DNA of 64,000 nucleotides from contig JAXLYE010000002.1 in assembly GCA_046351595.1 (NCBI GenBank), positions 1,496,022 to 1,560,021 on the forward strand, in the 5' to 3' direction. The stretch is from Polyangia bacterium. GTDB lineage: Bacteria; Myxococcota_A; Polyangia; Palsa-1104; JAEUJZ01. A program made the translations under genes and the position numbers. Shown one piece after another: positions 38,761-42,576 of the stretch. The number at the start of each line of letters is the position of its first letter. Position 1 is the stretch's first letter. The notes under the pieces are model-generated. The model did not search any database, was not told the origin of the DNA, and saw only the letters and a program-made list of their open reading frames with translations.

Positions 38761-38880
38761 GTCAGCCGCGGTTGCCCCACGCGGCGTCAGCCACGGTTGC
38801 CCCACGCGGCGTCAGCCGCGGTTGCCCCACGCGGCGTCAGCCGCGGTTGCCCCACGCGGCGTCAGCCGCGGTTACCAACG
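38761..38880. repeat. 5 tandem copies of a 25-bp unit (tcagccgcggttgccccacgcggcg), each junction forming a CGCGGC-gtca-GCCGCG palindrome
   Basis: Copies begin at 38761, 38786 (g>a variant), 38811, 38836 and 38861 (degenerate: ttaccaacga). The last copy overlaps the stop of the HEAT-lipoprotein gene. The array lies in the upstream region of the minus-strand cupin gene. Confidence 0.7.
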
Positions 38881-40499
38881 ATCGCGCGGGTGACGCGCAT
38901 CTCCTCGGCCAGCGCGATGCCCACCTTGTCGCGGCCCTTGTCGACGGCGATCTGGTCATCCATGGCCTTCAGCACGTCCTTGTCCGCCTTGGTCGCGGTG
39001 CGCGTCAGCGCGAACATCACCGCCGAGCGCACGGCCGAGTCCTTGTGGCCGACGTACTTGGTCAGCACCGGCACCGCGTCGTGGCCCAGCCGCGACAGCG
39101 AGAACGCCGCGCGCTCGGCCTTGGCCGAGGTCTCGGGATCCGTGCCGGTCGCCGCCAGGTACTTGCCGTAGCAGGCGATGTCCTTCTTGCACTCGGCCGC
39201 GACCTTGCTGCGCGCGATCGCGTTCTCGTAGACCTTCTTGATGTCGACGATGTCGGCCGGGATGGCCTTGGCGATCGGCTCCAGCGTCGCCGACTCGTCC
39301 TTGTCGGTGAGGCGCGACAGCTGCGTCACGCCCTGGGCCGCCATGGTCGCCTTGTTCTGATCGAGCTCGGGCAGGTCATCCTTGGTCTTGGGCGGCGTGA
39401 TGAACGTCGTCTTGGCCATCGCCAAGAGCCCCGGCAGCGCGTCGGTGGTGCCGAGCATGTTGAGCGCCTCGGCGGCGGCGGCGCGGTGCTTGGGATCGCG
39501 CTTGGTGTCGGCCATGATGCCGAGCAGCGTCTTGGTCACCGACGTGTCGCCGATGAAGCCGAGCGCCTGCAGCACCGACTGGTGGCCCGAGACGCCGTTG
39601 CCGGTGAGCCCGTCGTCCTTCTTGTTGAGCTCCGCGAGCAGCGCCGGCACCGCCTTCTTGCTGCGCAGGTCGCCGAGCACGATCGCCGCCTTCTGCACGA
39701 CGATGCCGGCGACGAACTCGTACTTCTTGGCGTCGGCCTCGACCGCGGCGTTCTTGCGCTGCATCGTCTCGATCAGCTTGTCCACCGACGGCTCGCCGAT
39801 GCGCACGAGCGCGTAGCGGCAGTCCTGGAAGATGTCGTTGCCGCGCCCGGTCATCCACAGGCCGCGCACCAGCGACGGCACGGACTTGGGATCCGCGAAC
39901 TCGCCCAGGTACTTTGCCGCCTGCTTGTTGATGAAGAAGTCCTGCTCGTCGGCGCTGGTTTCCAGCACCGTCGTCAGCGGCTCGACCGCGCGCGGATCGC
40001 GGGTCGCGGCCAGCGCCTTCATCGCCTCGACCTTGACCAGGTTCGCGCGCGTCTTGATCGGCAGCTTCTTGATGACGGCCTTGATCAGGACCGGCACCGC
40101 CTTCTTGCTCGCCTCGCGGCCCTTGTCGTCGCGCTCGGCGATCTCATACAAGCCGGTGGCCGCGACCATCGCGTTCTCGAAGTTGTCCTCCGAGTAGTCC
40201 ATCTGCTCGATGAACAGATCGACCGCGTTGTCCGAGCGCAGCTTGGTGATGACGCGCAGGTGCTCGGGATCCGAGCTGCGCTTGAACAGCTTGGTCAGGG
40301 GCTCCAGCGACGCCTCGCTCTTGAGGCGCGCGAGCTGGCGCAGCGCCTCCTTCTGCTCGCGCACGTCGTCGAGCTTCTTGATCCACGTCTTGGCATCGTC
40401 CGGATCCTCGGGACAGCCGGTCAGCGTGGTGGCGCCGAGCGCCAGGAAGAATCCGAGGCCGATCGAGTGTTGCCACAGCGAGCGACGGAGTGTGCCCAT
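38862..40499 (-). CDS. HEAT/PBS-lyase-type repeat lipoprotein
   Basis: Start MGTLRRSLWQHSIGLGFFLALGATTLTGC with an LTGC lipobox. The rest is an alpha-helical array with repeated ...AAxALGxxGDxxAVPxLxxxL.. HEAT-like units. The ORF is extendable to a GTG at 40547. Confidence 0.7.
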   Translation of the reverse strand: MGTLRRSLWQHSIGLGFFLALGATTLTGCPEDPDDAKTWIKKLDDVREQKEALRQLARLKSEASLEPLTKLFKRSSDPEHLRVITKLRSDNAVDLFIEQMDYSEDNFENAMVAATGLYEIAERDDKGREASKKAVPVLIKAVIKKLPIKTRANLVKVEAMKALAATRDPRAVEPLTTVLETSADEQDFFINKQAAKYLGEFADPKSVPSLVRGLWMTGRGNDIFQDCRYALVRIGEPSVDKLIETMQRKNAAVEADAKKYEFVAGIVVQKAAIVLGDLRSKKAVPALLAELNKKDDGLTGNGVSGHQSVLQALGFIGDTSVTKTLLGIMADTKRDPKHRAAAAEALNMLGTTDALPGLLAMAKTTFITPPKTKDDLPELDQNKATMAAQGVTQLSRLTDKDESATLEPIAKAIPADIVDIKKVYENAIARSKVAAECKKDIACYGKYLAATGTDPETSAKAERAAFSLSRLGHDAVPVLTKYVGHKDSAVRSAVMFALTRTATKADKDVLKAMDDQIAVDKGRDKVGIALAEEMRVTRAIVGNRG

Positions 40500-40737
40500 G
40501 ACCATCTCCTGGGGCGTCTCGCCCCGCGAATAGGGATGCGCCCGCACGCAGCACCGGCGCCCGCCCCGTCACGAGGGGAGCGGCGCCGCCGGCTGCGGTC
40601 GGGAGCGAAAATGAGTTGAGAGGAGCGAGCGCGCTGGCCGCGCGCGAAGAGGTGCGGTGTACAGAGGGGAGGTAGCAAAGGGAACCGCCCTTGGGGGTTC
40701 GCCGGTCGCGGTCGCGGGCCTTGCGGGGCCGTGCCGC

Positions 40738-41313
40738 TCAGCCGCCGCCGCCGCCTTTGCCTCGCTGCTGCACGGCGAAGTTGACGTTGGCATAGCCCGC
40801 CGCCGCGCACGTGTACATCACCCGCTTGAGGATCTTGAAGTCGATCTGCTTGTCGGCCTGCACGATCACCAGGCCCTTCCAGTCCTCGGGGTTGGGGTGC
40901 AGGAGCTTGAAGTTGTTCTTCAGCACCACGAGGTCGTCGTGCAGCTGCGGGATCTTCTGATCCAGCGCCTGCTCGGCCGAGAGCTCGGCGGAGTTGCCCT
41001 TCGGATCGCCGTTGAGCGTCACCGAGTCCTTCGAGATGGCGATGATCGGAGCCTGCTCGAGGTCCTTCCAGTTCACCGCCTCGGGGAGGGTGATGTTCTT
41101 GGAGACCGTCAGGAGCTCGCCCGAGGCCGAGAACGTCTGGAGCAGGAACACGACGAGGATGGTGAGCATGTCCACCATCGAGGTCAGGTTCAGCTCCGCG
41201 TACGTCGACTTCTTGCCCGCGCCGTGCTTGGTCACAAACTTCAGCGGGATGAACTTCCGGAGCCGCGGCGACGGCGGCTTGATCATCCCAGGCCGTTCAA
41301 GAGCAGAAGCCAT
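40738..41313 (-). CDS. ExbD/TolR-family protein (biopolymer transport; AglS/AglQ-like candidate)
   Basis: Single N-terminal TM segment (MVDMLTILVVFLLQTF), a periplasmic ExbD fold, and a C-terminal GGGGG. GGAGGAGG RBS. Confidence 0.8.
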   Translation of the reverse strand: MASALERPGMIKPPSPRLRKFIPLKFVTKHGAGKKSTYAELNLTSMVDMLTILVVFLLQTFSASGELLTVSKNITLPEAVNWKDLEQAPIIAISKDSVTLNGDPKGNSAELSAEQALDQKIPQLHDDLVVLKNNFKLLHPNPEDWKGLVIVQADKQIDFKILKRVMYTCAAAGYANVNFAVQQRGKGGGGG

Positions 41314-41316
41314 TTT

Positions 41317-41796
41317 TCAGCCTCCTCCGCCCTTATCCGTCAGCGCGACGGTCGGGAATTTGGCCGAGATGACGATGTCCATCGTCTTGACGACCTTGTT
41401 GTAGATCACTGCGTCGTCCACCTTGATGGTGATGTCTTCCTTGTCCTGGTGCTCCTTCTTGGCAGCGGCCAGGGTGTCGGCAAGCTTCGCGTAGTCGTAC
41501 TCCTCGCCCTTCTTATCAATCTGGGTGCTCTCCCCGGTGGACTTGGAGAAGATGTACCCGTCTTGATTGATGAACAGGGTGAGCTGCACGGTCGGAGGAG
41601 GTGACTCGTCCGTCGGTGCGGCCCGGCCCTGGGCCTTCTGCGTCACGTCCATGCGCGCGAGCTGCGTCCACACGGCGGTGATGAGAAGGAACGAGATACA
41701 GCACGACAAGAGGTCGATAAACGGGACCAGGTTGATCGCGGCATCAAGGGGCTTTTTGCCGCCTTTGCCGCTCGGGGTAGGTGCTGCGCCGCCCAT
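41317..41796 (-). CDS. ExbD/TolR-family protein (second paralog)
   Basis: LVPFIDLLSCCISFLLITAV TM segment, an ExbD-like periplasmic domain, and a C-terminal GGGG. Confidence 0.8.
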   Translation of the reverse strand: MGGAAPTPSGKGGKKPLDAAINLVPFIDLLSCCISFLLITAVWTQLARMDVTQKAQGRAAPTDESPPPTVQLTLFINQDGYIFSKSTGESTQIDKKGEEYDYAKLADTLAAAKKEHQDKEDITIKVDDAVIYNKVVKTMDIVISAKFPTVALTDKGGGG

Positions 41797-41919
41797 CGGA
41801 TCACTCCTTCGTCAGAGACTCGGTGAAGGCCCCGGAAGCTCCTCGCTCCGCCGGTACTGCAGCGGTGCGGGCCCCGAGGCCCCTTTCTGACCCAAGCCCC
41901 CGTTCGTGTTCGTGTCGGC

Positions 41920-42576
41920 TTACGCGCCCTGGCCGCCGGCCTTCATCGCCTGCTTGTGGCCGACGACGAGGTTCACGACCTGGACCGAGACCTCGTTGAT
42001 GTCGTCGAGCGTGTGCTGCGTCCAGCCGTTGAGGATGGCGAACCACAGCAGCGCCGGGACCGCGCAGATGAGGCCGAACGCGGTGCAGTTCATGGCCTCG
42101 GAGATGCCCTTGGCGAGCAGGGTCGCCTTCATCGAGGGATCGACGCCGGCGACGCCAGCGAACGAGTGGATGAGGCCGAGGATGGTGCCGAGGAGGCCGA
42201 CGAGGGTGGCGACGTTGCCGAGCATGGCCAGGTAGCCGGTGCGCGCCTCGAGCCGCGGGATCTCCTTGAGCGCCTGCTCGTCCATCGAGGCCTGGACCTC
42301 GGCGTCGGGGCGGTTGAACTTGGTGAGACCAGCCTGGATGATGCGGGTGACCGGGGTCGGGTTGCCGCTGCAGACCTTGACGGCGCCCTGAATGTTGCCG
42401 GCCATGATCTGGCTCTTGAGCAGCGACAGGAGCTTCTCCTTATCGATGCCGGCCTTCTTCAGGTAGATCACGCGCTCGATCGAGATGCCCCACGCGATGA
42501 TCATCAGACCAAGGATCGGCCACATCGGCCAGCCACCTTCGTGGAACGCATCCGCCAGCGCCTTGAGCATGGACAT
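41920..42576 (-). CDS. MotA/TolQ/ExbB-family proton-channel protein (AglR-like candidate)
   Basis: Start MSMLKALADAFHEGGWPMWPILGLMIIAW. Three TM helices, and the conserved GLLGTILGLIHSF...TLLAKGISEAMNCTAFGLI region. Confidence 0.8.
   Translation of the reverse strand: MSMLKALADAFHEGGWPMWPILGLMIIAWGISIERVIYLKKAGIDKEKLLSLLKSQIMAGNIQGAVKVCSGNPTPVTRIIQAGLTKFNRPDAEVQASMDEQALKEIPRLEARTGYLAMLGNVATLVGLLGTILGLIHSFAGVAGVDPSMKATLLAKGISEAMNCTAFGLICAVPALLWFAILNGWTQHTLDDINEVSVQVVNLVVGHKQAMKAGGQGA

Follow-up and report, generated by a model that had tools for sequence, protein, structure and literature searches.

A probable AglRQS-type motor cluster with a conserved HEAT-repeat lipoprotein gene in uncultured Polyangia

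Four neighbouring genes on the minus strand of a 64,000-nucleotide stretch of DNA from a Polyangia bacterium (assembly GCA_046351595.1, contig JAXLYE010000002.1; the whole stretch is referred to below as the window) encode a channel protein of the TolQ/ExbB family, two proteins of the ExbD/TolR family and a lipoprotein composed of HEAT repeats. The first three are very likely the subunits of a motor of the AglRQS type. Since the G+C content of the window is ~72%, genes were chosen by third-position GC (GC3), and the four open reading frames show coding-type values of 0.90–0.96. They lie exactly where an earlier, sequence-only reading of this DNA had placed them, and the gene order given there, MotA/TolQ/ExbB, ExbD, ExbD and HEAT lipoprotein, is borne out by coordinates and Pfam domains. 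In order of transcription, the genes are:

41920..42576, minus strand: AglR-like channel subunit of the TolQ/ExbB family, 218 amino acids (Pfam MotA_ExbB, 3.6e-26)
41317..41796, minus strand: AglQ-like subunit of the ExbD/TolR family, 159 amino acids (Pfam ExbD, 8.9e-19)
40738..41313, minus strand: AglS-like subunit of the ExbD/TolR family, 191 amino acids (Pfam ExbD, 8.9e-19)
38862..40499, minus strand: HEAT-repeat lipoprotein, 545 amino acids (HEAT_2, 1.3e-29; HEAT_PBS, 3.9e-23)

No terminator-like site occurs on the minus strand between the four genes, and an Rfam scan of the window returned no RNA family. Among the predicted genes scanned across the 64 kb, none carries a TonB, TolA, TolB, Pal or Glt domain. 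This agrees with the earlier observation that neither tonB nor tolA/tolB/pal follows the motor, and none of these genes is adjacent to the motor in related loci either.

The three motor proteins were compared with the NCBIfam equivalog models for TolQ (TIGR02796), TolR (TIGR02801), ExbB (TIGR02797) and ExbD (TIGR02803/NF008429); NCBIfam holds no model specific to AglR, AglQ or AglS. The channel protein scored 81 bits with TolQ (cut-off 221) and 60 bits with ExbB (cut-off 206), and the two ExbD-like proteins scored 45 and 26 bits with TolR (cut-off 127) and 21–25 bits with ExbD (cut-offs 153–216). Judged by these scores, none of the three belongs to the curated Tol or Ton families. AglRQS-like proteins defined by their genomic context display the same sub-threshold TolQ/TolR profile. 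Among solved structures, a sequence search placed TolQ closest to the channel protein (E = 5.6e-13), and an AlphaFold2 (AF2) model of the protein, with a predicted local distance difference test (pLDDT) score of 81, also has its best structural match in TolQ (TM-score 0.74–0.77, 22–24% identity), with ExbB behind it and MotA/PomA far behind. Similarity of the ExbD-like proteins to solved TolR or ExbD is very remote (~1e-4 in sequence searches of the PDB).

These scores bear directly on the alternative of an ordinary energiser for a TonB system, of the exbB-exbD1-exbD2 type, whose tonB and outer-membrane receptors are encoded elsewhere. Pfam, after all, assigns the proteins only to the generic MotA_ExbB and ExbD families, and Ton systems with a single exbB and two exbD genes in tandem are known (PMC3551730), as in Xanthomonas campestris (tonB-exbB-exbD1-exbD2) and Flavobacterium psychrophilum. 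However, the two exbD genes of Xanthomonas are described as mutually similar and adjoin tonB (PMC3551730), whereas the two paralogues in the window align with each other only at E = 0.002, have no tonB beside them and fall far below the ExbB and ExbD cut-offs. TolQ moreover outscores ExbB by both sequence and fold, no TonB or TonB-dependent receptor domain turned up across the 64 kb or the related loci inspected, and the nearest relatives with an informative context are either Glt-linked or AglRQS-sized. A TonB energiser is therefore very improbable.

The individual subunits show several features of interest. In the channel protein, Thr131 and Thr165 are invariant in one alignment of relatives, and its identity is 85–94% in the closer part of the clade that carries the HEAT gene (where HEAT identity is 40–72%) and 60–71% in a distant subgroup. 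The 159-residue protein has a membrane aspartate at residue 28 (Asp28) and a Pro-rich linker after its transmembrane helix. This residue corresponds to the D28 position of AglQ, in which the D28N substitution abolishes proton conductance and paralyses the machinery (PMC3858216). The 191-residue protein has its membrane aspartate at residue 48, a cytoplasmic N-terminal tail of ~40 residues before the transmembrane helix, and a Lys/Gly-rich C-terminus; its relatives are 67–100% identical among the database matches listed. Both ExbD paralogues end in oligo-Gly, as the sequence-only reading had noted (...KGGGG and ...GKGGGGG). For the 191-residue protein, GGG occurs within the last eight residues in 58 of 120 close relatives, and the Lys/Gly-rich tail is missing from more distant orthologues. 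In the published AglR5QS model, a heterodimeric plug is formed, with a long AglQ linker and an N-terminal tail of AglS that runs through the channel (PMC11761067). The linker of the Q-like protein and the long N-terminal tail of the S-like protein, as read from their sequences, fit this model (PMC11761067).

A HMMER search of 1.84 billion representatives with the channel protein yielded 153 clusters at E ≤ 1e-30. The nearest clusters outside its own clade include P0252 of the Anaeromyxobacteraceae (~48% identity) and P0303 (37% identity). In the latter, the order of genes is ExbB-ExbD-ExbD, followed by a 955-residue TPR protein, a 270-residue TPR protein and a 581-residue FHA protein. This FHA protein matches the NCBIfam model gliding_GltG at 1.1e-30, short of the cut-off (106.8 vs 650 bits), and passes the cut-off of the AgmX/PglI C-terminal domain (9.8e-16). 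By gene order and domain content, the P0303 locus corresponds to the Agl-Glt core that Luciano et al. described (PMC3169522), with putative GltD-, GltE- and GltG-like neighbours. The relatives of P0252 in the Anaeromyxobacteraceae form three-gene clusters of 230–245, 161–165 and 188–190 amino acids, with no TonB.

Subunit sizes can be compared with published values. In M. xanthus, the AglRQS proteins (MXAN_6862-6860) are 245, 162 and 194 amino acids long; the Anaeromyxobacter orthologues (Adeh_4310-08) measure 224, 162 and 194, and those of the Stigmatella M1 cluster 246, 160 and 195 (PMC3169522). A second Stigmatella copy, of M2 type, measures 244, 172 and 175 amino acids (PMC3169522). The sizes of 218, 159 and 191 amino acids in the window fit the M1 type (R 224–246, Q 160–162, S 194–195) and not the M2 type; the AglR genes of Sorangium encode 220–225 amino acids (PMC3169522).

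The two ExbD-like proteins can also be paired by position with those of the Anaeromyxobacteraceae. The channel protein is 47–49% identical to the R protein of these clusters. The 159-residue protein is 38% identical to the first ExbD (E of ~1e-34 to 1e-29) and matches the second in the transmembrane segment only (~1e-5), and the 191-residue protein is 39–45% identical to the second ExbD (E of ~1e-41 to 1e-38). All cross pairs match in the transmembrane helix only. The Q-like and S-like proteins of the window clade are thus positional reciprocal best hits of their Anaeromyxobacteraceae counterparts and, from the Anaeromyxobacteraceae side, the best non-self match for both Q and S is a window-clade protein.

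It is because of these sub-cut-off Tol and Exb scores, the AglRQS-like relatives, the subunit sizes, Asp28 and the positional pairing of the ExbD proteins that the cluster is assigned, as very likely, to the AglRQS-type motors, and probably as an ortholog of M1. The sequence-only reading had reached the same proposal, of an AglRQS-type motor rather than an ordinary Tol or Ton system, from composition, i.e., one TolQ-like gene with two TolR-like genes. That argument is weak on its own, since genuine TonB systems also have one ExbB and two tandem ExbD; the proposal itself is supported by the scores, relatives, sizes and Asp28. M. xanthus AglRQS, the M1 cluster, is a proton-driven motor for gliding and for the spore coat (PMC3169522, PMC3858216). 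The window shares with it an R-Q-S order in which two mutually divergent TolR-like genes come after a single TolQ-like one, the similar sizes (218/159/191 here vs 245/162/194 amino acids), the Q-like aspartate at residue 28, the long N-terminal tail of the S-like protein, the lack of tonB, tolA or pal alongside, and the lack of linkage to glt genes. It differs in that its proteins are ~48% (R) and 38–45% (Q and S) identical to the nearest Myxococcia-type cluster compared, in that its clade has a conserved HEAT lipoprotein gene downstream where Myxococcia loci have none, and in the presence of two tandem R genes in a distant subgroup of the clade.

Several points weigh against an assignment to the AglRQS type. 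The R protein of the Anaeromyxobacteraceae is slightly closer to a motor linked to Wza/Wzc genes (L096, described below) than to the window clade, and a neighbour-joining tree of 106 R-type proteins is star-like, so that the sister group is not separated. The link to M. xanthus itself goes through the Anaeromyxobacteraceae loci as proxies and through published gene sizes. When the S-like protein and the Anaeromyxobacteraceae R protein were used as queries, the best 120 homologues were all metagenomic, 20 cluster representatives that were looked up bore MAG names only, and a literature search for neighbours of aglRQS yielded nothing. Finally, no Glt, Nfs or GltG-like gene was found in the 64 kb, and gliding is therefore only a candidate function of the motor cluster. 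This absence does not decide whether the motor works with a Glt/Nfs-type complex via a GltG-like transducer of FHA-TM-TonB-like build, since the glt clusters of M. xanthus are also unlinked to aglRQS (PMC3169522).

The fourth gene encodes a protein whose signal peptide ends in a lipobox, L-T-G-C, with the cysteine at residue 29. Its start at 40499 lies 6 nucleotides after an AGGAG, in agreement with database proteins of exactly 545 amino acids. Both HEAT_2 and HEAT_PBS exceed the Pfam gathering score, and the predicted fold is a confident but generic alpha-solenoid; sequence searches of the PDB matched designed alphaRep proteins only. Cys29 is invariant in 16 of 16 diverse members aligned, and the lipobox pattern is present in 91 of 120 homologues. 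Directly after the lipobox cysteine the family has a conserved D-P-x-D-P-K-T-W motif, and an invariant pair, Cys437 and Cys443, occurs further along. For lipoproteins of M. xanthus, Lys at +2 specifies the inner membrane and Ala at +7 the matrix (PMC3222651). As the 91 members have no Lys at +2 and have Asp at +7, the protein is predicted under these rules to be periplasmic and anchored via Cys29, probably in the outer membrane.

A predicted outer-membrane solenoid at the end of a tolQR-like gene cluster raises the question of whether the cluster is a divergent Tol-Pal-type system for envelope maintenance, with the HEAT lipoprotein standing in for Pal or CpoB. The channel protein matches TolQ best, among curated families and solved structures alike, the TolQ/TolR-like architecture would be that of a 5:2 motor, and CpoB has been inferred to be ancestrally an alpha-solenoid outer-membrane lipoprotein ending tol-pal operons (PMC12204202), a position much like that of the HEAT gene. 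Nonetheless, this is the least probable of the readings considered here. The TolQ and TolR scores lie far under their cut-offs (81 vs 221 and 26–45 vs 127 bits), and tolA, tolB and pal are adjacent neither here nor in any related locus. Instead of a TolR homodimer there are two unlike TolR-like subunits, and instead of TPRs the lipoprotein has HEAT repeats, with no OmpA-like or TPR/CpoB match. Myxobacteria also own a separate, canonical Tol-Pal operon, MXAN_5753-5757 (PMC3169522).

The HEAT family appears to be confined to uncultured myxobacteria. There are 403 homologues at E ≤ 1e-3, named from metagenome-assembled genomes (MAGs) of Polyangia, Myxococcales or 'Deltaproteobacteria', with a few mislabelled Pseudomonadota. 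A scan of one genome per species, covering 185,579 species, confirmed 111 relatives, and the best 80 of the 111 are all from Polyangia/Myxococcales-type MAGs, none of them cultured. Synteny was counted in the 56 species-level loci with at least 2.6 kb of upstream DNA. In 52 of these, ExbB, ExbD1 and ExbD2 lie directly upstream of the HEAT gene on the same strand, and the earlier suggestion that the lipoprotein may be a motor-associated adaptor thus survives. The genes that flank the four-gene block vary by lineage, yet the block is kept while HEAT identity drops from 72% to 36%. In the distant subgroup (HEAT 36–42% identical), which has the two tandem R genes, the HEAT gene starts 22 nucleotides after the S-like gene.

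A rearranged locus, L094 (2568-10132), illustrates how durable this association is. Within 8 kb lie a motor orthologous to that of the window, a divergent, paralogous second motor and a member of the HEAT family, the two R-Q-S-type clusters being divergently transcribed. The paralogous cluster (224/207/194 amino acids) is followed by a gene for a 208-residue outer-membrane protein (OMP) beta-barrel. The other cluster comprises two R genes (232 and 215 amino acids), a Q of 158 and an S of 196 amino acids, and a gene for a Big-like lipoprotein that has Lys at +2 comes after it. The HEAT family member (514 amino acids, 37% identity) is convergent to the paralogous cluster and lies ~3 kb from the orthologous motor, with the paralogous one inserted between. 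Judged from gene order, the linkage of motor and HEAT gene outlasts rearrangement in this locus. Sorangium cellulosum, also of the Polyangia lineage, has two back-to-back AglSQR/AglRQS copies at sce2991-2996 (Luciano et al. 2011, PMC3169522). Its R genes of 220–225 amino acids and its duplicated-motor layout resemble L094, which has the HEAT member alongside, in a comparison that draws on the published gene list. No cultured genome is among the best 80 of the 111 HEAT loci.

The intergenic regions within the cassette conserve AGGAG ribosome-binding sites only. The R-Q spacer (41797-41919 in the window; also L011-L015 and L019) is 59–123 nucleotides long in the closer relatives, with AAGGAG its only conserved part. 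In several lineages it contains a GC-rich hairpin, which may tune the expression ratio of R, Q and S.

Conservation of this kind might also arise if the HEAT lipoprotein were a long-retained neighbour of an AglRQS-type motor, with an unrelated periplasmic job, and the synteny reflected shared ancestry in one clade. A number of the observations lean that way and count against a functional partnership. All carriers (the best 80 of the 111 relatives) fall in one Polyangia/Myxococcales radiation, and the orthologous AglRQS loci of Myxococcia have no HEAT gene. In four of the 56 genomes the HEAT gene is not linked to the motor; in L017, one of these four, it has clearly been relocated beside glycosyltransferase genes. 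The gap between the S-like and HEAT genes is 180–380 nucleotides in the window and its nearest relatives and may carry its own promoter. For example, a promoter-like TTGCCT-N-TATAGAAT occurs in this spacer in L009, L010 and L013, which suggests separate transcription in the window's subclade. Lastly, the predicted fold of the lipoprotein offers no functional clue. On the other side, the flanks turn over at both ends while the four-gene block persists (HEAT identity 72% to 36%), the linkage in L094 is kept despite the second motor, and gaps as short as 22–35 nucleotides in other subclades imply co-transcription. An unrelated neighbour is thus unlikely, if appreciably less so than a Tol or Ton system. 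The balance moderately favours an AglRQS-type motor with a clade-specific HEAT lipoprotein as its periplasmic docking or scaffold partner.

In the proposed mechanism, a TolQ-like pentamer of the AglR-like protein would surround a heterodimer of the anciently diverged AglQ-like and AglS-like, TolR-like proteins and would use the proton gradient via the membrane aspartates D28 and D48. The 5:1:1 stoichiometry and the drive by proton flow are projected from TolQ5R2 and from the AglR5QS model. The HEAT solenoid, ~515 residues long and presumably rigid, would be held near the membrane by a tether of roughly six residues, and the Myxococcus +2 rule would put the lipoprotein in the outer membrane. 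It could then be engaged by the periplasmic domains of the ExbD-like proteins or by a GltG/TonB-like transducer, encoded elsewhere, that draws its energy from the motor, a logic comparable to that of Tol engaging Pal/CpoB or AglRQS engaging Glt or Nfs. A physical interaction of the HEAT protein with the motor is suggested by synteny alone, and the cellular output could be gliding-type surface transport or another kind of envelope transport.

What is new here is the HEAT lipoprotein as a conserved fourth gene; the motor itself belongs to an already known type. None of the papers found describes a HEAT lipoprotein as the fourth gene of an AglRQS-type motor. More tentatively, and with somewhat less than even confidence, we propose that AglRQS-type motors in uncultured Polyangia have in this lipoprotein an output or docking module not recognised before, i.e., an outer-membrane-tethered alpha-solenoid that is engaged across the periplasm. 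Among Tol/Exb-like motors able to serve different envelope machines, AglRQS is the best studied, with gliding via Glt and spore-coat assembly via Nfs as its uses so far, and a third genetically linked partner, of a wholly different fold, would extend this idea of a modular motor. If the proposal is true, Glt, Nfs and the Tol-Pal-type partners would be joined by the HEAT protein as a fourth kind. Dozens of species in an uncultured myxobacterial clade have kept the cassette, and the HEAT protein is a concrete, testable candidate for the part that passes motor force to the outer membrane in bacteria that cannot yet be grown.

Other related motors have neighbours of their own. In L096 (9001-15211), an R-Q-S motor that is ~42% identical to that of the window stands beside genes for a 499-residue beta-barrel and for Wza-like and Wzc-like polysaccharide export proteins. 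Another, also ~42% identical, directly follows a YfbK_C/vWA-type protein in L097 (7010-9669). The occurrence of apparently related motors beside Glt-like, Wza/Wzc and vWA modules fits the modular-motor view of AglRQS (PMC3858216), and R-Q-S motors next to Wza/Wzc exporters and vWA proteins make up a small catalogue of candidate outputs.

Two further kinds of neighbour recur in the loci that carry the HEAT cassette. In most of one set of loci (L004/L005/L029, L006, L030, L031, L033, L035, L037, L038 and L071), a gene for an ERG4/ERG24-type sterol reductase begins 6–55 nucleotides after the HEAT stop codon on the same strand, and is followed by genes for sterol methyltransferase, 3-beta-hydroxysteroid dehydrogenase (3-beta-HSD) and oxidosqualene cyclase. 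L006 has the cyclase and the 3-beta-HSD, with no ERG4/24 match. The window has none of these sterol genes; it has only homologues of the DAGAT (9362-10411) and alpha/beta-hydrolase (10243-11292) genes by which the sterol cluster is flanked elsewhere. One could speculate that, in the sterol subclade, the motor and HEAT protein help to move sterols or other lipids to the outer membrane. The second neighbour, a protein of ~175–210 residues with a membrane anchor at its N-terminus and a weak TPR signal, is encoded immediately upstream of the R gene, in divergent orientation, in ~45 related loci of both cassette subgroups (for instance, L004 7457-7981, L006 7374-7922 and L007 7347-7976, all on the minus strand). 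Neither the window nor its nearest relatives (L011-L026) have this protein, which is a possible fifth component of the system.

Upstream of the motor in the window, the same strand holds a gene for an FHA-CHAT fusion protein, then lepB and lepA. The two features nearest to the motor are:

42577..42960, minus strand: region upstream of the motor, 384 nucleotides, with a GGGTC cluster and a 12-nucleotide tandem repeat
42961-45102, minus strand: FHA-CHAT fusion protein, 713 amino acids, with a Pro-rich linker between the domains

The FHA-CHAT protein was considered as a GltG-like partner of the motor and rejected, as the match to GltG covers the FHA domain only and no related locus has a counterpart. 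In a PADLOC search, neither the motor proteins nor the FHA-CHAT protein matched a defence system, and the HEAT protein gave only a weak match to WGR_XIII (E = 1.6e-05).

The upstream region had been credited with eight GACCC pentamers. The count of eight is correct, with the strands mixed: seven are on the plus strand at 42787-42892 (GGGTC on the coding strand), spaced by 12, 23, 11, 12, 31 and 12 nucleotides, a phasing of roughly 12, and one is on the opposite strand at 42602. Seven GACCC in 106 nucleotides is more than any of 300 first-order Markov simulations produced (at most 4), and GACCC-N5-8-GACCC pairs number 8 in the window vs 0.96 expected. The 12-nucleotide tandem repeat lies at 42915-42941. 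A conserved operator was considered for the GGGTC array and rejected, as a cluster of this type is absent upstream of ExbB in all 59 of the 59 orthologous loci; the FHA-CHAT gene next to it has no counterpart in any related locus. The array is real but confined to this genome, with no conservation as a regulatory feature. Further direct pairs of GACCC, 5–8 nucleotides apart, occur at 2159-2175, 11348-11393, 53921-53936 and 56504-56520, two of them intergenic, and the spacer at 11293-12017 has six GACCC on one strand. These dispersed pairs may represent a candidate binding motif.

Elsewhere in the window are a protein with major-vault-protein shoulder and repeat domains (31322-32935, minus strand), a VWA/Pro-rich protein (29743-31209, minus strand), a tyrosine integrase (32889-34064, plus strand) and a 582-residue protein with no Pfam match (36322-38070, minus strand). 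An AT-rich array at 28093-28210 separates two divergent genes of the citrate synthase family (26722-28044, minus strand, and 28194-29702, plus strand), the latter of which encodes an N-terminal MerR/HTH_17 domain. The array consists of ~5–6 tandem units of ~21 nucleotides, each an inverted repeat of the form TTGAT-N6-7-ATCAA, and has seven TTGAT in ~100 nucleotides, compared with 42 on that strand in the whole window. With this layout, it looks like a candidate multi-site operator.

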